This document shows positions 9,559 to 57,687 of a stretch of DNA of 64,000 nucleotides, in pieces (position 1 is the stretch's first letter; every line of letters begins with the position of its first letter). The notes below the pieces were generated by a model. The model searched no databases. It was not told where the DNA came from and was given only the letters and a program-made list of their open reading frames with translations. The DNA comes from a virus: IMG/VR virus record IMGVR_UViG_3300005663_001084, positions 24,929 through 88,928 of that record; one strand, 5' to 3'. Position numbers and translations under genes: made by a program.

Positions 9559-9605
9559 AACAGTATTATCGGATCGGGGCGGCTATTTAGCCAAGGAAAA
9601 TTATC
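9559..9605 (-). promoter_or_regulatory. class-1 conserved leaderless promoter
   Basis: The reverse complement reads aattttccTTGGCTAAATAGCCgcCCcGATCCGATAATactgttATG. Confidence 0.65.
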
Positions 9606-12585: not shown

Positions 12586-12640
12586 AATAGTACTATCGGA
12601 TTCGGACAGCTATTTGGTCAGGTAATTTTGTGGGTCAAGC
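12586..12640 (-). promoter_or_regulatory. class-1 conserved leaderless promoter
   Basis: The reverse complement reads cacaaaattacCTGACCAAATAGCtgTCCgaATCCGATAGTactattATG. Confidence 0.65.
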
Positions 12641-14364: not shown

Positions 14365-14418
14365 AACAGTGTTATCGGATCGGGACGGCTATTTGGTCAG
14401 ATAATTTTGCGGGTCAGA
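14365..14418 (-). promoter_or_regulatory. class-1 conserved leaderless promoter
   Basis: The reverse complement reads cgcaaaattatCTGACCAAATAGCCgTCCcgATCCGATAACactgttATG. Confidence 0.65.
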
Positions 14419-20919: not shown

Positions 20920-20970
20920 GGTGGGAGGATTTACATGACCAAAAAGCCGTCCGAATCCGATAATACCTGT
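20920..20970 (+). promoter_or_regulatory. class-1 conserved leaderless promoter
   Basis: ttaCATGACCAAAAAGCCgTCCgaATCCGATAATAcctgtATG. It lies inside track ORF 20824..21969. Confidence 0.6.
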
Positions 20971-31626: not shown

Positions 31627-31665
31627 ATTATCGGATCGGCAGGGCAGTTTGCCCAGAATTTCTTG
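31627..31665 (-). promoter_or_regulatory. class-1 leaderless promoter, minus-strand member of a divergent pair
   Basis: The reverse complement reads aaattCTGGGCAAActGCCcTgCCgATCCGATAATatggtcATG. Confidence 0.6.
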
Positions 31666-31698
31666 CCCAAATAGCCCTCTGAATCCGATAATACAGGC
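31650..31698 (+). promoter_or_regulatory. class-1 leaderless promoter, plus-strand member of a divergent pair
   Basis: gaatttcTTGCCCAAATAGCCcTCtgaATCCGATAATAcaggcATG. Confidence 0.65.
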
Positions 31699-34774: not shown

Positions 34775-34815
34775 ATTTTCTCCTAGCCAAATAGCCTTCC
34801 CAATCCGATAGTACT
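34775..34815 (+). promoter_or_regulatory. class-1 conserved promoter
   Basis: ttttctCCTAGCCAAATAGCCtTCCcaATCCGATAGTActc. It sits ahead of the NAD salvage operon. Confidence 0.6.
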
Positions 34816-34856
34816 CATAGCGGGTTTAACCGATACCGCACGCATGGAGACACCAG

Positions 34857-35786
34857 ATGAAAGAAGTCAGCCCCCCGGCGGCAGATGTCGGCGTCCTAGT
34901 CGGCAGGTTCCAAGTCCACAAACTCCACGAAGCACACCTGGAACTGATCAGGCACGTGGTCAAGCACCACGACCGCGTGATGATCTTCCTGGGCATGTCG
35001 CCGTGCCGCGTCACGAGGAACAACCCCCTCGACTTCGACGCCCGCAAAGCGATGATCCAGGACGCCTTCCCGGACGTAAGTGTCTACTACGTCAGGGACT
35101 GCCGACCCGATGACCTGTGGTCTAAGCGCCTCGACAACATGATCTATGAGCACATCAAGCCGGGCGCGAAGGTCCTGCTGTACGGTGGGCGCGACGCGTT
35201 CATCAAGCACTACGAAGGCAAGATCCCCACGCGCGAGTTGGAGCAGGAGGTCTTCATCTCGGGCACCGCCGTGCGCAACACCATCGCCAACACCGTGCCC
35301 AAGACGACCGACTTCCGCGCCGGGGTCATCTGGGCCTCCCAGAATCAGTACCCGCGTGCCATCCCCACCGTCGACGTGGCCGTCTGGGACGAGACCGGCG
35401 AGAAGCTCCTACTGGCCCGCAAGCCCGACGAGGATCTCTACCGCTTCATCGGCGGCTTTGCCACTGGCCCAACGTACGAGTCCGACGCGCGGCGCGAGGT
35501 CGACGAGGAAGCGCACATCGCCATCACCGATCCAGTCTACGTGGGCTCGCATCAGGTCGACGACTGGCGCTACCGCAGCGAGGCCGACAAGATCGTCACG
35601 CTCCTATTCGAGGCCAAGCGGCTCAGCGGCAACCCACGTCCCGACGATGACATCGCTGAACTCAAGTGGTTTGATTTCGCAACACTCCGCGACGAAATGG
35701 TCGTCCCGGAGCACCGTCCACTCCTCAAGATGCTTCAATGCAAGAGGGAGACACACCATGAAGACGAACATCGTACTGGCGACTGA
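34857..35786 (+). CDS. nadM: bifunctional NMN adenylyltransferase/Nudix hydrolase (NadM-Nudix type)
   Basis: N-terminal cytidylyltransferase-fold block VLVGRFQVHKLHEAHLELI. Nudix box GGFATGPTYESDARREVDEEAHI. The 3' end overlaps the nadV start. Confidence 0.8.
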   Translation: MKEVSPPAADVGVLVGRFQVHKLHEAHLELIRHVVKHHDRVMIFLGMSPCRVTRNNPLDFDARKAMIQDAFPDVSVYYVRDCRPDDLWSKRLDNMIYEHIKPGAKVLLYGGRDAFIKHYEGKIPTRELEQEVFISGTAVRNTIANTVPKTTDFRAGVIWASQNQYPRAIPTVDVAVWDETGEKLLLARKPDEDLYRFIGGFATGPTYESDARREVDEEAHIAITDPVYVGSHQVDDWRYRSEADKIVTLLFEAKRLSGNPRPDDDIAELKWFDFATLRDEMVVPEHRPLLKMLQCKRETHHEDEHRTGD

Positions 35787-37140
35787 CAGCTACAAGCTCA
35801 CCCACTGGAATCAGTACCCACGCGGCACGGAGAAGGTCTACTCCTACTTCGAGGCGAGGCCCGGCGCGAAGTACCGCGACACCGTGTTCTTCGGTCTCCA
35901 GTACATCATCGCCGAGTACCTCGCAGGCCACGTCGTCACGACCCAGAAGATCGACGAGGCCGAGGCGTTGGCAGCCCAGCACTTCGGCAATCCGAACATC
36001 TTCAACCGCGCCCGCTGGGACCACATCGTCGACCAGCACGACGGCCGCCTGCCTGTCCGCATCAAGGCGGTGCCCGAGGGCACGCCGGTCCCTGTCAACA
36101 ACGTGATGATGACCATCGAGAACACGGACCCGGCCTGCTACTGGCTGACCAACCACCTGGAGACGATCCTCACGCACGTGTGGTACCCGTCCACCGTGGC
36201 CACGCAGAGCCGGGAGGCCAAGCGGATCTGCAAGAGGTACCTCGAAGAGACTGCCGAGTCCGCTGGCGGCCTGGACTTCATGCTGCACGACTTCGGCTAC
36301 CGTGGCGTGTCGTCGGTGGAGTCGGCTGGCCTCGGCGGCGCTGGTCACCTCGTCAACTTCCACGGCACTGACACCATCGCGGCGATGGAACTGCTGCGTC
36401 AGTACTACGATGCCGACGTACCCGCGTTCAGCGTACCGGCCACCGAACACAGCGTGATGACCGCGCACGGTGCAGACGGTGAGAACTGGGTGCTGTCGCA
36501 ACTGCTCGATGCCTACCCTACCGGCATCCTGTCCATCGTGATCGACTCGTACGACTACCGGAAGTTCATCAAGATGGCAGGCACGACGTTCAAGGATCGC
36601 ATCCTTGCCCGCGACGGCAAGGTCGTCTTCCGTCCCGACAGCGGAGATCCGTGCGAGGTGACACTGGAGGTCCTGGAACTGCTGGGCGAGTACTTCGGGT
36701 CAGCCGACGGTAAGCCCGGCTACAAGATCCTGCACCCCCAGGTCGGCGTGATCTGGGGCGATGGCATCGATCTCGAAGACATGGAGCGCATCCTGGCCGA
36801 CATCACCTACGCGGGTTGGAGCGCCGAGAACATGGTGTTCGGCATGGGCGGCGGCCTGCTCCAGAAAGTCAACCGCGACATCCAGCGCTTCGCGTTCAAG
36901 AGCAGCTACCAGGAGCGCGGCGGCGAAGGCCACGACATCTTCAAGGAGCCCATCGACAAGACCAAGACCAGCAAGAAGGGCCGACTGAAGCTGGTGCGCC
37001 TCGAAGGCGCGCACGGCTCCACGCTGACCACCGTCGGCATCGATGATCCACGCGAGGACCTGCTGGAGACGGTCTTCGAGGGCGGTCAGGTCCTGAAACG
37101 TTACAGCCTGGACGAGATCCGCGCGAGAGCAGCACTGTAA
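35758..37140 (+). CDS. nadV: nicotinamide phosphoribosyltransferase (NAMPT/NadV)
   Basis: MKTNIVLATDSYKLTHWNQYP...FGYRGVSS...HGTDT. It is co-linear with the NAMPT family throughout. The track ORF 35146..37140 is over-extended into the nadM alternate frame. Confidence 0.85.
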   Translation: MKTNIVLATDSYKLTHWNQYPRGTEKVYSYFEARPGAKYRDTVFFGLQYIIAEYLAGHVVTTQKIDEAEALAAQHFGNPNIFNRARWDHIVDQHDGRLPVRIKAVPEGTPVPVNNVMMTIENTDPACYWLTNHLETILTHVWYPSTVATQSREAKRICKRYLEETAESAGGLDFMLHDFGYRGVSSVESAGLGGAGHLVNFHGTDTIAAMELLRQYYDADVPAFSVPATEHSVMTAHGADGENWVLSQLLDAYPTGILSIVIDSYDYRKFIKMAGTTFKDRILARDGKVVFRPDSGDPCEVTLEVLELLGEYFGSADGKPGYKILHPQVGVIWGDGIDLEDMERILADITYAGWSAENMVFGMGGGLLQKVNRDIQRFAFKSSYQERGGEGHDIFKEPIDKTKTSKKGRLKLVRLEGAHGSTLTTVGIDDPREDLLETVFEGGQVLKRYSLDEIRARAAL

Positions 37141-37184
37141 CACCCAGAAGCAGCCCCGGATGCACGTTATTGGCCCGGGGTTGC

Positions 37185-37221
37185 TTTTTACCTGCCCGAA
37201 TAGCCATCCCGATCCGATGAT
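37185..37221 (+). promoter_or_regulatory. class-1 conserved promoter
   Basis: tttaCCTGCCCGAATAGCCaTCCcgATCCGATGATatg. Confidence 0.55.
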
Positions 37222-37692
37222 ATGGGTGGAGACAAGCAGATGCACAAGAACTACCTGGAGATCGACCCGCGCGGCGGGCCAACCAACGTACCTGCCGGTC
37301 AGGTCTTTGGTGGCGTGCGCTTCACGTTACTGAAGGGAGCCACAGAACAGCGAGTGGAAGTCAACTCGCTGTTCTGTGGACCGGCAGTGATCAGCAGGAT
37401 CAACTTGGACCCGCACGGCGCGACCTCGGCGGTGGTCTACCAGCTTGTTCACGATGGCCAGATCACATGCGTCTGGCACCAAAGACACCTTGGGCCAGCC
37501 CTCCAGATCTTTGACCGGCGCTACGACATCTCCCGGGACCGCGAGGCCGAACGGCGTGGCGAGAACCTGAAGGAGTTCGGCGAGCAGTCGGCCCGGGCAC
37601 TGGTGGGCATGACCAGGGCCGACCGGATGAGCATCATGCACCGAGCTATGGTGCCCGGTGCAGGCGAGGAGGCGTGGACATGGGTCAAGTAA
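37222..37692 (+). CDS. hypothetical protein
   Basis: ORF. The alternative start ATG 37240 (MHKNY) follows GGAG. Confidence 0.45.
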   Translation: MGGDKQMHKNYLEIDPRGGPTNVPAGQVFGGVRFTLLKGATEQRVEVNSLFCGPAVISRINLDPHGATSAVVYQLVHDGQITCVWHQRHLGPALQIFDRRYDISRDREAERRGENLKEFGEQSARALVGMTRADRMSIMHRAMVPGAGEEAWTWVK

Positions 37693-37900: not shown

Positions 37901-38518
37901 GTGGAATACTACGAGTCACATTGCCCTGACTGTAACGCGACCTACCGTTGGGTTGGCTACAAGACTGGCATCGGCAAGACGCCCGAGCAGCTTGCTGCTA
38001 TGAATCGCCTGCACACTACCTGCGAGAGATGCGGCAGCACGAACCTGAAGACTGGGCTCGACCACGGCAGCCCGGAAGCGCAGGCGTACGACTCGGCGTT
38101 GAAAGGCACGATCAGCAGAATGCTACAGCCCACCCAGGAGGTGCGGACAGTCAAGACGACCGAGACCAAGCTCAGTGACGATGTGTGCCTGACTTGCCTT
38201 TTCTCCCACATGGAGCAGGTGTCTGTTGAGGATGGGAAGCTGAAAGTCCTTGGTCGGCTCGGCTATCCACCCGTTCTCAAGGGCTCTGTGGAGGCTGACT
38301 TTAAGATCGAGGTGGAACCTGAGACGGGCCATTTACGGGCACTCGTGGCTGGCCCGATCCGAACGGATTCTCATCCCATCAAGTACCGTGTGGACGTGGC
38401 TGAATTGGGGATGAGAGTGCACTGGATTGGAGATGCAAAAAGACGATGGCTAATGAGACGGACTGGGAAGAAACGTTGGAGGAACTTTGATGGCGGTGAC
38501 CCCCCTTCGAGAACATAG
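37901..38518 (+). CDS. zinc-ribbon protein
   Basis: GTG start after GGAGAGG. CPDCNATY...CERCGS. Confidence 0.45.
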   Translation: MEYYESHCPDCNATYRWVGYKTGIGKTPEQLAAMNRLHTTCERCGSTNLKTGLDHGSPEAQAYDSALKGTISRMLQPTQEVRTVKTTETKLSDDVCLTCLFSHMEQVSVEDGKLKVLGRLGYPPVLKGSVEADFKIEVEPETGHLRALVAGPIRTDSHPIKYRVDVAELGMRVHWIGDAKRRWLMRRTGKKRWRNFDGGDPPSRT

Positions 38519-41722: not shown

Positions 41723-43399
41723 TTACTCGAACAGGTGGATCTCTTTCGGATTGAACTCAGCTTCAAGGACTCCCTGAAGTTTGCCGGTCCACTTGTACTG
41801 ACCGGGGTTGACAACACTGAGCCTGCCGGTGTCGCCCTCGAAGTGGCCTTTCCAACGGCTATCGACAGGAGGGTCCAAGTAGTCCCAGACTAGGTTGTGC
41901 GACCACGTGGGCAGTTCACCGTGCTCCTGAAAATACTCTTCCATGGCTTCGTCGTCTTCCAGGTCGAAGTCAACCAAGTCTTCCATGATCTGTTGATGGC
42001 GCTCGACTTGACCGTGATTCAGCACCCATATCTCATGTGTTCTTGGGTCTGTATAATCCATCTCGAACTCGTCGCCAGGATCGACATGGTACGCCTCGTT
42101 GCCATGCCCAAGCTCGAAGTAGAATATCGCTGTACTTTCGTCACCAACCGTGTGCGGGACGACAGGAGACTCGGTCAGCAGGATACCGCGCATGATCTGC
42201 CGCATCGAGTCCGCCACGTGCCGCTCGCGTCCGCGCTGTCCGTAGGCGGGCTCCCCGAACTCGTCCGGCCACGGCGTGTCTTTGTACGACTGAAACTGTG
42301 GATCATCCAAGAACGTGCCAAGGTGTTTCCACCGCAGACGCAGGAGTTCCTCAGGAAGAAGCTCGTGCGTTCGGCTTTGGTTAAGCGGCCACGGGTTGGT
42401 GGGCCTTTCCTCGTCTCCCGGCATGAGGTCGCGTACGCTGCCGGGCTTGACGACGAACGTCGGTCCCACGCGCTCGATGTACTGCCTCCAGAACTCGGGG
42501 TCCGGCTTGCCGTAGAGTACCGTGTAGCGCTGGTACATGTCCGCGCCGGTCCTGGGCATCTGTCTCCAGTGCCATGCGTTGTCGTTCTGGACCGCCCAGA
42601 GGATCTTGTTGGCTCCCCGAAAGCCCACGTCCTGGTCAAGCCGGATGTTGCTGGCCCCAAACATCGCGCCTTTTGTATGCTTGGCGATCTGACCGCGCAC
42701 GGCCCGGAGCAGCTTCTCGTGCGCCTCGCGGACGATTGGCGTCGTCTTGGCTGTCCCACTCCAAGGATCGGTTGCCTTCTCTTCAATCGCCGCGCGCATC
42801 CAAGCTCGGATCATTTCCTTGTATGGGCGGAAGAGTCTCAGGGCGAACTCGCCGGGCATGCGCCGTTCGAGCTTCTCGTTCAAGAACCCGATGAAGTCCT
42901 CGAAGCTCGGCATCATGGCCCCGTCTACCTTGTCGTACCACTCCTTGTCCCAGTGCGCTGCCCCGGTCGCCTTCCGGTAGCTCTCCCAGTCAAGACTGTC
43001 AAGCGCGATCAGGATGGCCTGGGCCGTGTCCGACGAGGGGATGTTCTGGCCCACTCGGCGCATGAAGAGCGTGAGAGGGATGCTGGCCGAAAGCTGGTCT
43101 TCGTCGAACAGCGCGGTCCGCGTCTCGACCTGGAGGCCGAACACGACCGGCGCGCCGCCGAACTTCTCGGCTGCCTTTCTGGCTTCGCTCTCTGCCGTCA
43201 TCGCGTTCTGTGTAGCATAGATGCCTCCGTACGAGGCGATGGTGCCGCGCTCGGGATCGTACTGGCGCTGCTCGGGAGGAATGTCGGCACGCAGGCCCTC
43301 CTTGAAGACCAGACGGGCGCGGCCTGAAGACGTTCCGTGATAGTAGATCTCGCGGGCTTCGGTGAGCATCCTACGTATGGCTTGTCGGGCTGCGTCCAT
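41723..43399 (-). CDS. L-family protein 13 (about 558 aa); possible H-Y-E ADP-ribosyltransferase-like N-terminal domain; internal second leader motif
   Basis: N-terminus MDAARQAIRRMLTEARE. Candidate ART motifs YYHGTSSGR and YGGIYAT. Internal copy SMRQIMRGILLTES. The C-terminal approximately 170 aa are homologous to protein 14 (FYFELGHGN...LPTWSH...KGHFEGDTGRLS...EIHLFE). Confidence 0.7.
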   Translation of the reverse strand: MDAARQAIRRMLTEAREIYYHGTSSGRARLVFKEGLRADIPPEQRQYDPERGTIASYGGIYATQNAMTAESEARKAAEKFGGAPVVFGLQVETRTALFDEDQLSASIPLTLFMRRVGQNIPSSDTAQAILIALDSLDWESYRKATGAAHWDKEWYDKVDGAMMPSFEDFIGFLNEKLERRMPGEFALRLFRPYKEMIRAWMRAAIEEKATDPWSGTAKTTPIVREAHEKLLRAVRGQIAKHTKGAMFGASNIRLDQDVGFRGANKILWAVQNDNAWHWRQMPRTGADMYQRYTVLYGKPDPEFWRQYIERVGPTFVVKPGSVRDLMPGDEERPTNPWPLNQSRTHELLPEELLRLRWKHLGTFLDDPQFQSYKDTPWPDEFGEPAYGQRGRERHVADSMRQIMRGILLTESPVVPHTVGDESTAIFYFELGHGNEAYHVDPGDEFEMDYTDPRTHEIWVLNHGQVERHQQIMEDLVDFDLEDDEAMEEYFQEHGELPTWSHNLVWDYLDPPVDSRWKGHFEGDTGRLSVVNPGQYKWTGKLQGVLEAEFNPKEIHLFE

Positions 43400-43403
43400 T
43401 GCG

Positions 43404-45230
43404 CTACTCAAAAACGTGAATTTCAGTCGGGCTGAACTCGGAGCGGAGCATTCCGATCAACTGGTTGGTGAGTTTGAAGCGTCCAGGGTTCATGGCGCTG
43501 AGCCTTCCGGTGTCACCCTCATAATGACCTTTCCAGTACTGGTCGGGGTTCGGCCAGAGCATACCATGCGACCACGTGGGCAAGCCTCGTCCCTTCTCTT
43601 CTTGTTGATCGACGTAAGCCTGCAACGCTTCGGGATCGCTTAGGTCAACACCCTCGTCCTCGATGTTAGGCATGTTAAGCTGATGGTAACGCTGGATTTC
43701 GCCGTGCATCAGAACCCAAATCTCATGGGTCAGCGGATCGGTGTACTCCATCCCGTCGTCATACGAGGTGTTCCCGTGTCCGAGGTCGAAGTAAAATACG
43801 GATGTACCTTCATCGTCGATCTTGTGGAGCGTGACATCGCTGGCGACGACAGATTCGGGGAGGCTCTCCTTGTCCATCACCACAAGAGCCGGAAGCGCCT
43901 CGACACCCAGGACGTGGAGAGCGTCGTACCGGTGGCTGCCCTCCAGGACGTACGGGCCTTCTTTGTCGACAACCACGATCAGCGGCACGATCCAACCACT
44001 TGCAGCGATCTGCTGCGCCAGTTCGCGGGCCGCCTCGTTGTCATCTCCAGAAGTCTCGAAAGCAGACAAGGGAACGGCGCGGATGCCGGACAGCACCTCG
44101 TAGTCCAGAAGACTGGCCGCGATGGAACTGGTATTTGGAACTTCGTCACCCACGCGGAGGCCGCTGACCTCGTCACCAGCCCGTGGGTAGAGTTCGTCCT
44201 CCTGGGCCTCGGCGAGTATTCGACGTATCACACGTCGGCTTTCGGTCAGCGCCTCGTCCTGCCCGGCGTAAAACCTGCGGATCGCACCCATGATGCGGCG
44301 CGAGTTTTCTCCGGGATCGAACATGTAGGACTTATTCCGTTCGGCCTTCCAGTAGTAGTCGTTACGCTCGTCGAATTCGCCCAGGCCGTCCTCCATATCG
44401 ACCGGCATGCCCTCGGCGCTGAAGTTATCGATCCAGCCCTCCAAGGTCCGGTACTGCGCCGAGGTGGGCTGGACCATCATGTCGAGGCCGCCGTCTTCAG
44501 GCATCAGACGGATCGCGCCCAGGCTCATAAACTCCTGCATGCCGCGCGTGCCGCCCCCGCCGTAACCGATGTTCCGATGGTCAAAGCCGCGCCCGTAGCC
44601 GCCGCCCCCGCCCGAGATCATGTCGCCGTCAGGCAGCAAGTAGAACGCATCGGTGAAGCTGCTCGTGATCCCGAACCGGCCCTTGGCTTTCTCGAACGGG
44701 TCGGCCTCGTCCTCCGCGTCCTCTACGCCGGGCCAGTCCTCCATGGACAGCGGCATCTCGTTGTCTAGCTTTCGGAGAACCTGGAGCGGGATCTCGCGGT
44801 ACCTGGACTCCTGGCCGTTCTGCACACTACGGAATACGGAGCGAGCGTACTCTCCGGCCGACCAGCCGAACTCGTCACTGATCACTCCAATGATCCGGGC
44901 GTGGAAGTCCAGCAGTATCTGGGGTTCGTTCTGGACGAGCGCAGCCATCTCTCCCGGATTCCAGTTGAGTGCGTCGTAGACCGCGCTCCAGATAGTCCGG
45001 TGCTCACCCTCGTCGAACGTAGCCAGCGTGTACTCGGGGAACAGTTCAGTGACAATCCTCTCGTAGCGCTGCCAGTCGTAGTCCCTGTCCTCCTCACGGT
45101 TTACCGCGTCCAGGAAGAACTCCCGCAGGTGATCGTACGTCATGTTCCAGACGTGCCGAGGCTGGGTGGGAGCCTCAACGCTGGCCTGCTCGGCCAACAC
45201 CTGCCGCATCACTAGGCGAGTGGCATCCAT
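43404..45230 (-). CDS. L-family protein 14 (about 608 aa) with internal leader copy, ParB-like domain and a C-terminal domain shared with protein 13
   Basis: N-terminus MDATRLVMRQVLAEQ. Internal copy ESRRVIRRILAEAQ. ParB-like motif YVLEGSHRYDALHVLG. C-terminal FYFDLGHGN...LPTWSH...EIHVFE. Confidence 0.7.
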   Translation of the reverse strand: MDATRLVMRQVLAEQASVEAPTQPRHVWNMTYDHLREFFLDAVNREEDRDYDWQRYERIVTELFPEYTLATFDEGEHRTIWSAVYDALNWNPGEMAALVQNEPQILLDFHARIIGVISDEFGWSAGEYARSVFRSVQNGQESRYREIPLQVLRKLDNEMPLSMEDWPGVEDAEDEADPFEKAKGRFGITSSFTDAFYLLPDGDMISGGGGGYGRGFDHRNIGYGGGGTRGMQEFMSLGAIRLMPEDGGLDMMVQPTSAQYRTLEGWIDNFSAEGMPVDMEDGLGEFDERNDYYWKAERNKSYMFDPGENSRRIMGAIRRFYAGQDEALTESRRVIRRILAEAQEDELYPRAGDEVSGLRVGDEVPNTSSIAASLLDYEVLSGIRAVPLSAFETSGDDNEAARELAQQIAASGWIVPLIVVVDKEGPYVLEGSHRYDALHVLGVEALPALVVMDKESLPESVVASDVTLHKIDDEGTSVFYFDLGHGNTSYDDGMEYTDPLTHEIWVLMHGEIQRYHQLNMPNIEDEGVDLSDPEALQAYVDQQEEKGRGLPTWSHGMLWPNPDQYWKGHYEGDTGRLSAMNPGRFKLTNQLIGMLRSEFSPTEIHVFE

Positions 45231-46852: not shown

Positions 46853-47335
46853 ATGCCAGAAGATCACGACTGGAAAGCGATCAGCCAACTGATGGAGCAG
46901 GCGTCCGTCCTGGCCCAGCGGTACAATCTGTGCATCTGGAACGGCATCAAAGCTGACGGCAGCAGGCACATCGAAGCCTACCGCATGAAGCGTGGCGAGA
47001 AGGACGTTGTGCTGACTACCCCGAGCATGGAAAAAATGATCGAGAAGCTCACCGTGATGGCTGTAGAGGGGAAGCTGGAACATCACGACCGCGCCGTCGA
47101 AGACATCGACCCAGAGATCTGGCACCTGCACATCGACAGCGCTGCGTTCAATCTGCTGCACAAGACACAGGATCTGCACCAGACGTTCAGTCATCTGATC
47201 GGCCCGGTAGGGCTGGTGTACGACCGGTACTGCGTCATCGACATGCAGCTACGGAACCTGTGCCTATCTATCCAAAACCTAACCAGTTCGATACGCAAAG
47301 TCCCCATTCGAGAAAGAGAGAAGAAGCATGGATAA
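46853..47335 (+). CDS. hypothetical protein
   Basis: Internal start MPEDHDWKAIS. Confidence 0.45.
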   Translation: MPEDHDWKAISQLMEQASVLAQRYNLCIWNGIKADGSRHIEAYRMKRGEKDVVLTTPSMEKMIEKLTVMAVEGKLEHHDRAVEDIDPEIWHLHIDSAAFNLLHKTQDLHQTFSHLIGPVGLVYDRYCVIDMQLRNLCLSIQNLTSSIRKVPIREREKKHG

Positions 47336-48002
47336 TCCGATCATCGTGGCCCTCGATGGCATCGACATGTCGAAGGCTATCGCTCTCGCGCAGCTATTGA
47401 AGGATGACGTGTGGGGGTTCAAGGTCAACGACCTGTTCTTCCAGCACGGCATCCAGGCTGCCAACAACCTCGGGGTCTTTGGCAACGTCATGCTCGATGG
47501 GAAGTTCCACGACATCCCGAATACCGTGGAGAACACCACGAAGAAGATCGCAATCTTCGGCCACCCGGCTCCCGGCATCGTTACCATACACGCCTCCGGC
47601 GGCCCTGCGATGATACGGGCTGCTGTTGAGTACCTTCCGGGAAAGGTTGCGGCTGTCACCGTGCTCACGTCATTAGACGAGGACGCCTGCATGCACGTTT
47701 ACAACGTGCGGCCTGAGGTTGCCGTCAAGCGCCTCGCCAGTATGGCCCACGAATACGGAGCCAGCTTCATTGTGTGCAGCCCTCTGGAACTTGCCGCGCT
47801 CAAAGACATCCCTCGTCCCAAGATCGTCCCAGGCATCCGCCCGCTCTGGTACCAGGAGGCTGACGATCAGGCGCGGAAAATGACTCCTGCCGAGGCAATG
47901 GAAGCCGGGGCCGGGTTCCTGGTCATGGGCCGTCCGATCCTGCGCGCGGACGATCCGGTCGAAGCCGCGCAGCGCACACTCGAAGAGATCAAGAAGGGGT
48001 AA
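47328..48002 (+). CDS. pyrF: orotidine 5'-phosphate decarboxylase
   Basis: IVALDGIDM...FKVN; LDGKFHDIPNTV (catalytic DxKxxDIPNT); HASGG; VTVLTS; PGIRP; GRPI. All OMPDC signature blocks are present, in order. Confidence 0.85.
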   Translation: MDNPIIVALDGIDMSKAIALAQLLKDDVWGFKVNDLFFQHGIQAANNLGVFGNVMLDGKFHDIPNTVENTTKKIAIFGHPAPGIVTIHASGGPAMIRAAVEYLPGKVAAVTVLTSLDEDACMHVYNVRPEVAVKRLASMAHEYGASFIVCSPLELAALKDIPRPKIVPGIRPLWYQEADDQARKMTPAEAMEAGAGFLVMGRPILRADDPVEAAQRTLEEIKKG

Positions 48003-48004
48003 CT

Positions 48005-48823
48005 ATGTCACGCGACTGGAAGAACACAGGACTCTACCAGGAGTTCAACCAGGACGATGCGGACACCCGCGTCGAACGGTTCATTGAGGCCGCCGCCAAG
48101 CTGACCGTCGAGTTCCTGGAGGACCAGGATGCCTTCTGGCATTGGGACGGCCACAAGCACGTGGCGGAGTTGACCAGCGGCAAGCTGAGCAACTTCTTCG
48201 CCAACTGCACGCCGATCTTCACACACCCCGGCATCCAGAAGGACATCGCACACGCACTGTGCGAGAAGCTGGTGCGCAGCGTGTACGTCGGGATGGATAA
48301 GTTCCTGGGGAAGCCCGCAGGATACCACGGTCAGCCACGTATACTCACCGACGATAGGCTGTTCAAGACGCACCCTAACCGCTGGGTCGTCGGCTCCGCC
48401 ATGGGCAGCATCGGCCTCGCGCAGTCCATCGCCTCGGTCCTGGGCCAGGGCTGGAAGGCCGCATTCGCCGACAAAGGTGGCGACGGCATGGAACTCAAGC
48501 GGTTCGACCTGGGGGAAGCGCCCATGGTCCTGCTCTGCGAGGATGTGTTCACAACCGGTGGGACCATCAAGTCGACGATCATGGCCGTCGAGAAGAAGCA
48601 CGAGGACGTTCTCTTCGTGCCCGAGGTCCCGACCATCATCAACCGCAACCCGGGCTACTCCTTCCAGGTCAAGCAGGGTGGACCCGGCTTCCACTTCCCG
48701 GCGCTCATCACCAAGGTCGCTGAAACCTGGGACGATGTCACCAGCCTGCCCGAGCGCATGAAAGGCTGCGTCCCGATCCGGCCGAAAGTAGGATGGAAAA
48801 AACTAACAACCGCGATGTTATAG
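48005..48823 (+). CDS. type-I phosphoribosyltransferase, putative orotate PRTase, with a roughly 100-aa N-terminal extension
   Basis: PRPP-binding motif VLLCEDVFTTGGTIKS. Adjacent to pyrF. Confidence 0.6.
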   Translation: MSRDWKNTGLYQEFNQDDADTRVERFIEAAAKLTVEFLEDQDAFWHWDGHKHVAELTSGKLSNFFANCTPIFTHPGIQKDIAHALCEKLVRSVYVGMDKFLGKPAGYHGQPRILTDDRLFKTHPNRWVVGSAMGSIGLAQSIASVLGQGWKAAFADKGGDGMELKRFDLGEAPMVLLCEDVFTTGGTIKSTIMAVEKKHEDVLFVPEVPTIINRNPGYSFQVKQGGPGFHFPALITKVAETWDDVTSLPERMKGCVPIRPKVGWKKLTTAML

Positions 48824-54959: not shown

Positions 54960-55383
54960 ACCCAGCGACGAGTTCTGGGCAGCCTTCCGTTGCGGCGGAA
55001 GCCTCGTCATCCTGTGCGAGCACTGCGGACGGACACACTTCTGTACCACTTCCGGGGCTGTCGACTACAACGAAGGTGAACTGGAAGAGCTACTGGAGAA
55101 GGCCAAGAAAGACCCCGACATGTACCGTGAAGACGGCACGTACAGCAGCATCGAGTGGGGATACATCGGCGGGAAGCAGTCTGTCATGCACTGCCCCTGC
55201 AACGAAGAGAAGATCGCTCCCTACGAACAGTTCATCATCGTCCACGCCGAACAGATCCTGGAGTATCTCCAGAGCCGAGCTAATAAAAAACTCAGGAGTT
55301 CTCAGAGCCTCATGGACAAGGTCAACGAGACACTTAACGCCACAGAGGAAGCAGACAATGCGAGTAACCGTAGCCCCGAATGA
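54949..55383 (+). CDS. zinc-binding protein
   Basis: CEHCGRTHFC...HCPC. Confidence 0.45.
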   Translation: MMRKPSDEFWAAFRCGGSLVILCEHCGRTHFCTTSGAVDYNEGELEELLEKAKKDPDMYREDGTYSSIEWGYIGGKQSVMHCPCNEEKIAPYEQFIIVHAEQILEYLQSRANKKLRSSQSLMDKVNETLNATEEADNASNRSPE

Positions 55384-56566
55384 ACCGCCCGAGTCCTGGA
55401 CCTCATCGGTTTTCCTCGCCGGTCCCACGCCACGCAAAGAGGGCGACACCCGCTGGCGTGACAAAGCTATCGCGGAGTTCAAGAAGAGAGGCTTCGACGG
55501 TGTGATCCTCGACCCCGAGCGTGAGGACTGGCCCGAAGACAAAGAGGGCTACGAAGAGCAGATCCACTGGGAGCAGGAGATGCGCGAGCGGTGCGACGTA
55601 ATCCTGTTCTTCGTCCCGCGCCACATGGAACTGGCCCCCGGACTGACGACCAACATCGAGTTCGGCCAGGACCTATCAGGCTGGAAGGTCGTCTACGGCA
55701 GGCCCAACGACGCGGTCAAGATGGACTACATGGATCTCATCTACAAGCAGCGCTACAAGGTGGTCCACGAGACGTCCATCGAGGCCACGGTCCAGGCCGC
55801 CATGGACATGATCGAGACGCTCACGGAGAAGATCCACGACGTCGAGGCGGAGACGAGTGCGCTGCGTGAGGACGGCGAGACCTATGTGCCTCTTCACATC
55901 TGGTCGTCTCCCCAGTTCCAGTCCTGGTACAAGGCTCAGCTTGCCGTGGGCAACCGTCTTGACGCCGCCCGCGTGGAGTACGCGTTCGTGATGCCCAAGG
56001 CAGGGCTGCTGTTCATGTTCGTACTGTGGGTCAAGGTCTGGATCGAGGCAGAGCAGCGGCACAAGGAGAACGAGTTCATCGTCAGCCGCACCGACATCTC
56101 CACCATCGTGGCGTACAAGAAGGCGCTGTCCGGATCGCTGGCCGACACTGAACTGGTCCTGGTCCAGGAGTTCCGCAGCCCGGTCCGTAACAGCAGCGGC
56201 TTCGTCTACGAGTTGCCCGGTGGGTCAAGCATCAAGCCTGGGCAGGACCCGCTACAGATCGCGGCCGAAGAACTCCACGAGGAAACCGGCATCAAGATCG
56301 ACGACCCGAAGCGGTTCGTTCAGGTCATGCCGAAGCAGCTTGTCGCCACCATGCTCACGCACCAAGCCCACGTCTTCGCCATCGAACTGACCGAGGAGGA
56401 GATGGCTGTCGCGCGGGCCAAGGACGCGGCCGACGAGACCCACGGTCTGGAAGAGGACTCGGAGAAGACCTACGTCCGGGTCACGACGTTCGGTGAGCTT
56501 CCCGACCGCGATGTCGACTGGTCGACCATCGGGATGATCACCACGGCCCTACGCCAGGAACTCTGA
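55358..56566 (+). CDS. fusion of nucleoside 2-deoxyribosyltransferase-like (DNPH1/NDT fold) and Nudix hydrolase
   Basis: N-terminal SVFLAGPTP...CDVILFFVP...TNIEFG. C-terminal Nudix-like box GGSSIKPGQDPLQIAAEELHEETG. The start was moved from the over-extended track ORF 55076. Confidence 0.5.
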   Translation: MRVTVAPNEPPESWTSSVFLAGPTPRKEGDTRWRDKAIAEFKKRGFDGVILDPEREDWPEDKEGYEEQIHWEQEMRERCDVILFFVPRHMELAPGLTTNIEFGQDLSGWKVVYGRPNDAVKMDYMDLIYKQRYKVVHETSIEATVQAAMDMIETLTEKIHDVEAETSALREDGETYVPLHIWSSPQFQSWYKAQLAVGNRLDAARVEYAFVMPKAGLLFMFVLWVKVWIEAEQRHKENEFIVSRTDISTIVAYKKALSGSLADTELVLVQEFRSPVRNSSGFVYELPGGSSIKPGQDPLQIAAEELHEETGIKIDDPKRFVQVMPKQLVATMLTHQAHVFAIELTEEEMAVARAKDAADETHGLEEDSEKTYVRVTTFGELPDRDVDWSTIGMITTALRQEL

Positions 56567-56865: not shown

Positions 56866-57687
56866 ATGAATGATGATTACCATGGTCCTCCGCCAGGAGT
56901 TACAGCCATGAATTTCGACACCGAGCTTGTGCAGTGCATGGTCGACCGCATCTGCGATTTTCACAGGGGCCAGACCCGTAAGGCCCTGCCGATCCCGTAC
57001 ACCTTTCATCTCTTCGACGTGGCCAAGACGCTGGTCAACTGGGGCATCGAAGATGCCGACGTCATTGCCGCTGGTCTGGGGCACGACCTGATCGAGGACA
57101 CCAAGGACAGTCACCCCAGCCTGATCGCACAATTCGGCACACGTATCGCCGGGATGATCGACGAACTGACTTGGGTCAAGGAGGACGGCACCAGTCGGAC
57201 GGCCAAGGTCAAGCACTGGAAGCAGTTCGCCGAGCACTCCACCATCCAGGCCCTGGTCATCAAGGCGGCCGACCGCTACTGCAACGTCCGGGACTACGCC
57301 CGGCAGCGCAGTCGGGACAACGAGTACGAAGGCGAGTACGCGGCCCGGTATGCCTGCTATCTGTACCCGGTGTGGCGGGCGATCTACACTCGGCAGGACG
57401 AGGTCTCTCGGGTCTTCGGAGACAGGGCGCAGCGGCTCATGGACCCGGACATCCGGTGGATCATCCGCCTCATCCGCTGCGACGTGAAGATTTGCCTGGA
57501 CGTCATCAACTCCAGGACGGTCCTCATCGACGGCGCTCTGGACATCGGGCTGGGCAAGGAACTTTGCGACGCTCAGGCTGATCTGGAGAGGCTGAACCAC
57601 GAGCGCTCCAAGAACGAGAAGGAGATCCAGGCAGCCGAATTGAGGCTCCATAAGCTGAATAGGCGGGCCTCCGATGAGCCTGAGTGA
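56866..57687 (+). CDS. HD-domain phosphohydrolase of the SpoT/Mesh1 small-alarmone-hydrolase type
   Basis: FHRGQTRKALPIPYTFHLFDVAKTL...AAGLGHDLIEDT matches the RelA/SpoT HD signature. The alternative start ATG 56908 has an AGGAG ribosome-binding site. Confidence 0.65.
   Translation: MNDDYHGPPPGVTAMNFDTELVQCMVDRICDFHRGQTRKALPIPYTFHLFDVAKTLVNWGIEDADVIAAGLGHDLIEDTKDSHPSLIAQFGTRIAGMIDELTWVKEDGTSRTAKVKHWKQFAEHSTIQALVIKAADRYCNVRDYARQRSRDNEYEGEYAARYACYLYPVWRAIYTRQDEVSRVFGDRAQRLMDPDIRWIIRLIRCDVKICLDVINSRTVLIDGALDIGLGKELCDAQADLERLNHERSKNEKEIQAAELRLHKLNRRASDEPE

Follow-up and report, generated by a model that had tools for sequence, protein, structure and literature searches.

NadV (Nampt) and NatV (NMNAT-Nudix) are reportedly encoded by vibriophage KVP40, as described by Lee and colleagues in 2017. 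KVP40 Nampt and Nmnat together constitute NARP2, which makes nicotinamide adenine dinucleotide (NAD+) via nicotinamide mononucleotide (NMN) in vitro, abolishes type I Thoeris and DSR2 defense and raises NAD+ in infection, also in cells without a defense system (Osterman et al., bioRxiv 10.1101/2024.02.11.579819). NARP2 occurs in phage genomes at a frequency of ~1.1%, and Nmnat is also encoded by 94% of the phages with KVP40-type Nampt (Osterman et al., 10.1101/2024.02.11.579819). In this study, a stretch of 64 kb from the 224,854-bp viral contig of IMG/VR record IMGVR_UViG_3300005663_001084 (referred to as the window) was analyzed, and all absences reported for the window cover these 64 kb. 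Our codon-usage gene model of the window contained ~130 genes, of which 128 predicted proteins were scanned. An earlier note on this DNA had proposed that positions 34857 to 37140 encode a fusion of NMN adenylyltransferase (NMNAT) and Nudix domains followed by a nicotinamide phosphoribosyltransferase (NAMPT), and that the two form a two-enzyme route from nicotinamide via NMN to NAD+ of the KVP40/NARP2 type. Two co-directional genes, here called gene A and gene B, were found at this locus with profile, fold and motif support, and the core of the proposed route holds by homology, motifs, fold and synteny. The two genes probably form an NAD+ salvage module of NARP2 type, equivalent to NadV/NatV of KVP40, in a jumbo phage that has not been cultured. 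Both the pathway and the role presumed for it were known before from KVP40; what is new is the carrier, an uncultured jumbo phage, and a divergent, compact NatV.

Family assignment of gene B and gene A

The ATG at 35758 (MKTNIVLATDSYK...) was identified as the start of gene B, not position 35146, at which the long open reading frame (ORF) has its earliest start codon. The coordinates of both genes were identical in public gene calls (two independent assemblies of the same sample). The product of gene B matched Pfam NAMPT_N (1.7e-40) and NAPRTase (1.1e-42), NCBIfam PRK09198 with 595 bits vs. a cutoff of 405, and PHROG_448 (3e-160). It also matched human NAMPT structures over the full length with E values of ~1e-139 to 1e-142, and the identity to human NAMPT in a HMMER alignment in human numbering was 49.8% over 456 aligned positions. 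Moreover, all 12 key NAMPT residues were kept in gene B (Y18, F193, R196, D219, H247, R311, D313, G353, D354, G383, G384, and R392). Thus, loss of the Asp and Arg residues that bind phosphoribosyl pyrophosphate (PRPP), which had been named beforehand as a refutation of the NAMPT assignment, is not the case. According to published structures of NAMPT, its key residues function in stacking, PRPP binding (Arg196, Arg311, and Arg392), nicotinamide specificity (Asp219), and autophosphorylation (His247). By alignment, D205, H231, R182, R292, and R373 of gene B correspond to human Asp219, His247, Arg196, Arg311, and Arg392, respectively.

The identities between gene B and its homologs in blastp ranged from 48% for human NAMPT and gp14 of Ralstonia phage RsoM2USA to 34% for Namat of Felixounavirus, whose match was fragmented by insertions. 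In between were the copy of huge phage LR756502 (47%), NadV of the KVP40-like phage ValKK3 (41%), and the enzyme of Staphylococcus Kayvirus, which like Felixounavirus has a NARP1-type layout (36%). Namat is a homolog of Nampt, and some in vitro activity on ADP-ribose (ADPR) pyrophosphate (ADPR-PP) was found for the Nampt of KVP40 (Osterman et al., 10.1101/2024.02.11.579819). Gene B could thus be imagined as a NARP1-type Namat that uses nicotinamide and ADPR-PP, instead of a PRPP-dependent Nampt. This is extremely unlikely, given that human NAMPT and KVP40-type NadV are both more similar to gene B than Felixounavirus Namat is, that no Adps- or PRPS-like protein is encoded in the 64 kb examined of the 225-kb contig, and that its partner is Nmnat, which is the defining mark of the NARP2 clade. 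The Namat gene of Felixounavirus adjoins a PRPS-like gene; in the window, Pfam scanning of the 128 proteins found no member of the Adps/PRPS, Prs, PnuC, and NadR families. Judged from its sequence, gene B is a clear nicotinamide phosphoribosyltransferase with affinity to KVP40-type Nampt, not a NARP1 Namat.

The predicted NMNAT domain of gene A spans ~aa 9–150 and contains GRFQVHKLHEAH, NNPLDF, and ISGTAVR, and its Nudix domain spans ~aa 165–295 with GGF...RREVDEE (Pfam NUDIX, 5.8e-12, aa 170–291). When used alone, gene A matched two solved bifunctional NMNAT/ADPR-pyrophosphatases (2e-5 and 3e-5) and an archaeal NMNAT (7e-5) weakly. A profile built from 35 gene A relatives had the NadM-Nudix structures 2QJT (1.5e-17) and 2QJO (7.5e-15) on top, with both domains in order. 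Similar to the profile results, the six best Foldseek matches of the AlphaFold model of gene A (pLDDT of 84.9) were NadM-Nudix chains. The global TM-score to these chains was ~0.45, with a root-mean-square deviation of 12 Å, because the inter-domain orientation differs in the model; the similarity is thus one per domain. After the NadM-Nudix chains, Foldseek matched the Nudix domain of gene A alone with NudC/NUDT12.

Among the 35 relatives, H27, N56-P57-L58-D59, S135, and R140 (the latter two in ISGTAVR) were invariant and H24 was nearly so. In the Nudix core RE-x2-EE, E214, E217, and E218 were invariant and R213 was nearly invariant. In addition, a DxxxRS motif C-terminal to the Nudix box is common to the gene A clade and to canonical NatV. 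The earlier note had also asked for the NMNAT motif HxGH. Both His residues are kept in gene A, and the motif reads HEAH (H24-E-A-H27). HxAH is the prevailing form in this family: of 119 relatives with an N-terminus, 82 had HxAH and 29 HxGH (111 of 119 together), and another four had TxAH or TxGH. The alternation between HxAH and HxGH is plausibly that of an (H/T)xGH site that is functional and tolerates Ala. ATP sulfurylases, which belong to the same superfamily, use an HxxH motif (HRAH), and Ala in the gene A signature is therefore plausibly tolerated. The HxAH variant also provides a handle on how much variation the nucleotidyltransferase signature tolerates.

Several observations weigh against the assignment of the pair to a NARP2-type module. 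First, the match of gene A to Pfam CTP_transf_like (8e-4, aa 14–99) scored 20.0 bits, just under the cutoff of 21 bits, the best NCBIfam NadM-Nudix score was 44.8 bits vs. a cutoff of 397, and six more PRK05379 models scored 27–43 bits vs. cutoffs of 354–449. Second, compared with GRFQPFHxGH, the signature GRFQVHKLHEAH has a 2-residue insertion as well as Ala in place of Gly. Third, ~30 inter-domain residues of the canonical phage NatV proteins (KVP40-like R10Z, RSP15, and RsoM2USA gp22) are missing from the gene A clade. Fourth, the first Glu of the Nudix box (GX5EX7REUXEEXGU) is absent from gene A and its closest relatives, because a loop is shortened. Fifth, UDP-X diphosphatase and NudC/NUDT12 outscored the NadM Nudix domain when the Nudix domain of gene A was compared by profile, and its substrate is therefore uncertain. 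Finally, a phage PRPP synthetase was not found in the window, and a pyrE-like gene near the pair is a second phage-encoded consumer of PRPP. The terminal Gly of the Nudix box is also replaced, by His, in gene A, and the identities between gene A and phage NatV proteins were ~22–27%.

The first two of these points, together with a low-confidence loop (aa 48–57) in the AlphaFold model, could also mean that gene A is no NMNAT at all: a nucleotidyltransferase for another substrate or an inactive remnant, whose Nudix domain alone works while NAD+ is made by the host NMNAT. We consider this very improbable. The two His residues, the NPLDF loop and SGTxxR are conserved features of the whole family, and the third signature position alternates between Ala and Gly. 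The top profile and fold matches are NMNAT-Nudix enzymes and archaeal NMNAT, and the pairing with NAMPT described below is near-obligate, as expected of an enzyme that consumes NMN. The NadM identity given to gene A by the earlier note is thus borne out in architecture and fold, while the scores far under the curated NadM-Nudix cutoffs make it a remote relative. Gene A is most likely a shortened, remote relative of NadM-Nudix with the same architecture and a NatV-like function, and not a member of a curated family.

In the gene A copy of LR756502 (L001, 6001–6930), RKFMDE replaces RE-x2-EE and the NMNAT signature is retained; the Nudix domain of that copy may be inactive.

Pairing of the genes and candidate signals of a transcription unit

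Gene A relatives with at least 35% identity were found in 5 of 50,697 deposited phage records, which are those of four uncultured huge phages and of Tunturiibacter phage Tunturi_5, a 309-kb acidobacterial phage. Metagenomes contained thousands of relatives, and 156 were found on IMG/VR viral contigs. Pairing was counted on 80 viral contigs of IMG/VR that encode a gene A relative of 41–72% identity; a NAMPT homolog was scored if it was on the strand of this relative and at most 6 kb away. Such a homolog was present in 70 of the 80: directly downstream (gap <350 nt) in 52, further downstream in 16, and upstream in two. In three of the 10 contigs without NAMPT, the remaining downstream sequence was too short for a NAMPT gene. 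The order of gene A followed by gene B was also found in annotated genomes, those of Tunturi_5 (gp218 then gp217) and Ralstonia phage RSP15, as well as in the uncultured and unannotated huge phage LR756502 (642 kb), where a NAMPT-type ORF is directly downstream of the gene A relative.

In seven IMG/VR loci (L034, L059, L070, L072, L076, L078, and L089), a gene A relative stands beside a distant phosphoribosyltransferase with 26–29% identity to gene B. This enzyme may represent another phosphoribosyltransferase subfamily that partners the NatV-like clade.

In the window, the 5' end of gene B is inside gene A, and the two co-directional genes overlap by 29 nt. This overlap and the Shine-Dalgarno-like GGGAGA within gene A (Table 1) suggest that translation of the two genes would be coupled. 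The claim that the pair has its own promoter was sustained in part. A 20-nt motif, AATAGCCNTCCCNATCCGAT, with a GATAAT-like hexamer occurs in 13 copies in the window vs. 0.05 expected, one of them upstream of gene A, and the strand of every copy is that of the genes downstream; its activity as a promoter is inferred. Between its -35-like and -10-like parts, the motif has an unusually conserved spacer. A scan with the sigma-70 consensus upstream of gene A found nothing, and the motif was not found in the related phage loci searched; it thus has zero comparative support and is specific to this phage.

For five or six of the motif copies, the predicted start codon is 9–10 nt past ...CCGAT, which is about the expected transcription start, suggesting that the mRNAs at those copies are leaderless. 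The other copies, including that of gene A, are followed by a leader with a GGAGA-type Shine-Dalgarno sequence.

Downstream of gene B, a candidate terminator hairpin with a 14-bp stem is predicted (GAAGCAGCCCCGG ... CCGGGGTTGC then TTTTT), with a folding energy of -26.1 kcal/mol (z = -3.45; 1 of 200 shuffles as stable). A simple terminator scan missed this hairpin, because its loop is long. The next copy of the motif marks the right-hand boundary of the pair, where the next transcription unit would begin. Given that the repeated motif and the hairpin bracket the pair, it looks like a discrete unit. No terminator was found between the pair and the upstream genes, and read-through may therefore occur.

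Table 1. Positions of the gene pair and of the candidate expression signals in the window.
Feature	Position	Strand	Basis or remark
Gene A, 309 aa, predicted compact NadM-type NMN adenylyltransferase domain plus Nudix hydrolase domain	34857..35786	+	Pfam/NCBIfam/PHROG, profile, AlphaFold/Foldseek
Gene B, NadV/Nampt, 460 aa	35758..37140	+	NCBIfam, PHROG, human NAMPT alignment
Shine-Dalgarno-like GGAGA of gene A	34846..34850	+	6 nt before ATG; sequence reading
Shine-Dalgarno-like GGGAGA of gene B, within gene A 3' end	35746..35751	+	6 nt before ATG; sequence reading
Promoter-like motif AATAGCCTTCCCAATCCGATAGTA	34790..34813 (20-nt core 34790-34809)	+	-10-like GATAGT at 34807-34812; ~45 nt before gene A start
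Next promoter-like motif copy	37199..37222 (20-nt core 37199-37218)	+	59 nt past gene B stop; heads gene 37240-37692
Terminator-like hairpin	37147..37189	+	From 7 nt past gene B stop; RNA fold
Other AATAGCCNTCCCNATCCGAT copies	9568-9587(-), 12595-12614(-), 14374-14393(-), 20942-20961(+), 31630-31649(-), 31670-31689(+)	+ and -	
Further AATAGCCNTCCCNATCCGAT copies	45749, 51107, 53797, 57722, 59929	+	

Proposed role and genomic context

The pair very likely serves to convert nicotinamide via NMN to NAD+, as far as homology and motifs can indicate. In the proposed mechanism, gene A and gene B would probably be transcribed together from the phage-specific promoter, translated in a coupled manner through their overlap and terminated at the intrinsic terminator at the end. 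Gene B (Nampt) would form NMN from nicotinamide and PRPP, and the N-terminal NadM-type NMNAT domain of gene A would form NAD+ from NMN and ATP. The Nudix domain of gene A would most likely hydrolyze ADPR, and perhaps NAD(H), to AMP and a ribose-5-phosphate moiety, of which ribose-5-phosphate could be returned to PRPP by the host PRPP synthetase. The module would likely maintain or replenish the NAD+ of the infected cell, including under TIR, SIR2, or DSR-type cleavage of NAD+ into ADPR and nicotinamide.

The compact gene A clade, with its HxAH signature, shortened linker, and NudC/NUDT12-like Nudix scores, could be more than a trimmed NatV, and its Nudix domain could have a job other than recycling of ADPR, such as removal of NAD caps from RNA or destruction of ADPR-derived signals (the gcADPR of Thoeris). 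We regard such a job as improbable. If it were true, a widespread lineage of jumbo phages would join resynthesis of NAD+ with hydrolysis of signals or caps in one polypeptide.

For the salvage module itself, we lean slightly towards a counter-defense benefit by analogy with KVP40. Alternatively, the pair could be a general auxiliary metabolic module that supplies NAD+ for replication (redox balance, NAD+-dependent enzymes, and nucleotide synthesis) and was not selected as counter-defense. KVP40-type NARP2 raises NAD+ in defense-free cells as well, because it starts from PRPP and not from the products of NAD+ cleavage. NAD+ metabolism genes are also described as typical of jumbo phages, and the window contains other metabolic genes: pyrF, the pyrE-like gene, a Nudix fusion with a nucleoside 2-deoxyribosyltransferase (NDT)-like domain, and a gene for a SpoT-like HD hydrolase. 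However, metabolic and counter-defense roles are compatible with each other, the KVP40 genes abolish Thoeris and DSR2 experimentally, and a Nudix domain that possibly recycles ADPR fits a setting of NAD+ cleavage. A purely metabolic role is therefore doubtful, though it deserves more weight than any of the other alternatives considered here.

The metabolic genes are all on the plus strand. pyrF at 47328–48002 matched Pfam OMPdecase (2.3e-35) and scored above the cutoff of TIGR01740. The pyrE-like gene follows directly (48005–48823) and encodes a divergent, orotate phosphoribosyltransferase-like protein (TIGR01367, 3.5e-14, below cutoff). The gene at 55358–56566 encodes 402 aa, in which an NDT-like domain (PF15891, 1.5e-12) is fused to a second Nudix domain (1.4e-4). 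In Tunturi_5, too, a gene for an NDT-like protein is present, ~5 kb downstream of the gp218–gp217 pair. The gene at 56908–57687 encodes a stand-alone HD_4 / RelA-SpoT hydrolase-like protein (9.8e-13; TIGR00691, 1e-15, N-terminal part only), possibly a (p)ppGpp hydrolase. In addition, one of the 128 window proteins matched Pfam Zn_ribbon_NUD, the zinc ribbon of NADH pyrophosphatase (6.1e-5); at the thresholds used, it is neither the product of 55358–56566 nor that of 37901–38518.

The earlier note had further suggested that candidate NAD+-consuming effectors resembling ADP-ribosyltransferases (ARTs) coexist with the pair. This suggestion was not supported: the 19 Pfam families found with E <= 1e-3 among the 128 window proteins include no ART. 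ADP-ribosyltransferase, RES, TNT, and DarT-type families were absent from the Pfam matches of the 20 largest proteins at E <= 0.05 and of all 128 proteins at E <= 1e-3, and no ART was present among the 25 of 40 PHROG families listed. Very divergent ARTs may be encoded in the window.

The contig was assembled from the metagenome of deep-sea marine sediment of Loki's Castle (samples SRR1555743 and SRR1555744), and its source is an uncultured, high-GC jumbo phage. The gene A protein is an exact match of the NCBI entry 'hypothetical protein LCGC14_0164130 [marine sediment metagenome]', which is also on a 224,854-bp contig. A nucleotide search with the 2.8-kb pair and 24 kb around it gave zero matches in the 50,697 phage records, and therefore the phage itself is not deposited there. 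Some bacteria, Francisella and Synechocystis among them, are known to have NadM-NadV pairs. Such pairs, and the result that no capsid, portal, or terminase was recognised by Pfam among the 128 proteins of the 64-kb window, might point to a bacterial chromosome or island with ordinary cellular NadM/NadV salvage. This explanation is hardly credible. The ~130 genes of the window are mostly short and almost all without a Pfam match, and the recognised content is of phage type, including several HNH homing endonucleases, endonuclease VII, a T4_Y13H domain, and phage-only PHROGs of unrecognised function. Moreover, among deposited sequences, the nearest relatives of gene A come from the four uncultured huge phages and Tunturi_5, and the 156 relatives from IMG/VR are on viral contigs.

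The window also encodes a GNAT protein, and no tRNAs were found in it. Two large genes on the opposite strand are downstream of the pair: that at 41723–43399 (-) encodes 558 aa without a family match, and that at 43404–45230 (-) encodes 608 aa with a faint ParB_N/Noc-like stretch and otherwise no family match.

Comparison with described NAD+ rebuilding systems

Similar to the pair of this study, NARP1 (Adps and Namat) and NARP3 (PnuC and NadR) are two-gene systems with which phages rebuild NAD+, and Namat is a homolog of gene B. Different from it, NARP1 requires the PRPS-like Adps and uses ADPR-PP, and NARP3 imports nicotinamide riboside. The partner genes of NARP1 and NARP3 were not found in this window.

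The bacterial NadM-Nudix enzymes of Francisella tularensis and Synechocystis (2QJT, 2R5W, and 2QJO) were the best matches of gene A among solved structures, and their domains are collinear with those of gene A. They share with gene A GRFQ...H-x-(G/A)-H, NP(F/L), an SxTxxR-type motif, and RE-x2-EE, at identities of only 18–22%.

The closest relatives are those of the gene A clade, LR756502, LR745206, LR756500, LR756504, and Tunturi_5 gp218, with 35–44% identity to gene A and a compact architecture like that of gene A. The flanks were read for LR756502 and Tunturi_5, and both have the NAMPT gene directly downstream. However, these phages have no similarity to the phage of this study at the nucleotide level and are without the promoter motif AATAGCCNTCCCNATCCGAT. 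With the metagenomic relatives, they point to a large subfamily of compact NatV-like enzymes that is mostly metagenomic and is not called as NMNAT by curated models. Given that curated models miss this clade, surveys based on canonical Nmnat may under-count NARP2 in environmental huge phages.

Compared with NARP2 of KVP40, gene A is ~22% identical to KVP40-like NatV (tblastn, E = 0.02), ~30 residues shorter, with HxAH and the 2-aa insertion, and without the first Glu of the Nudix box. Whereas the two genes are adjacent and overlapping here, none of the six ORFs flanking nadV of ValKK3 (three on each side) contained GRF or RE-x2-EE. In all features that sequence analysis could address, the pair agrees with NARP2. 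The likeness is in the enzyme pair itself, in the predicted chemistry (nicotinamide and PRPP to NMN; NMN and ATP to NAD+), in the large phage that carries it, and in the lack of Adps from the window. Finally, the NMNAT and Nudix domains of gene A are in the same order as in KVP40 NatV. The pair would probably add a high-GC jumbo phage of deep-sea sediment, not yet cultured, to the carriers of the NARP2-type module.

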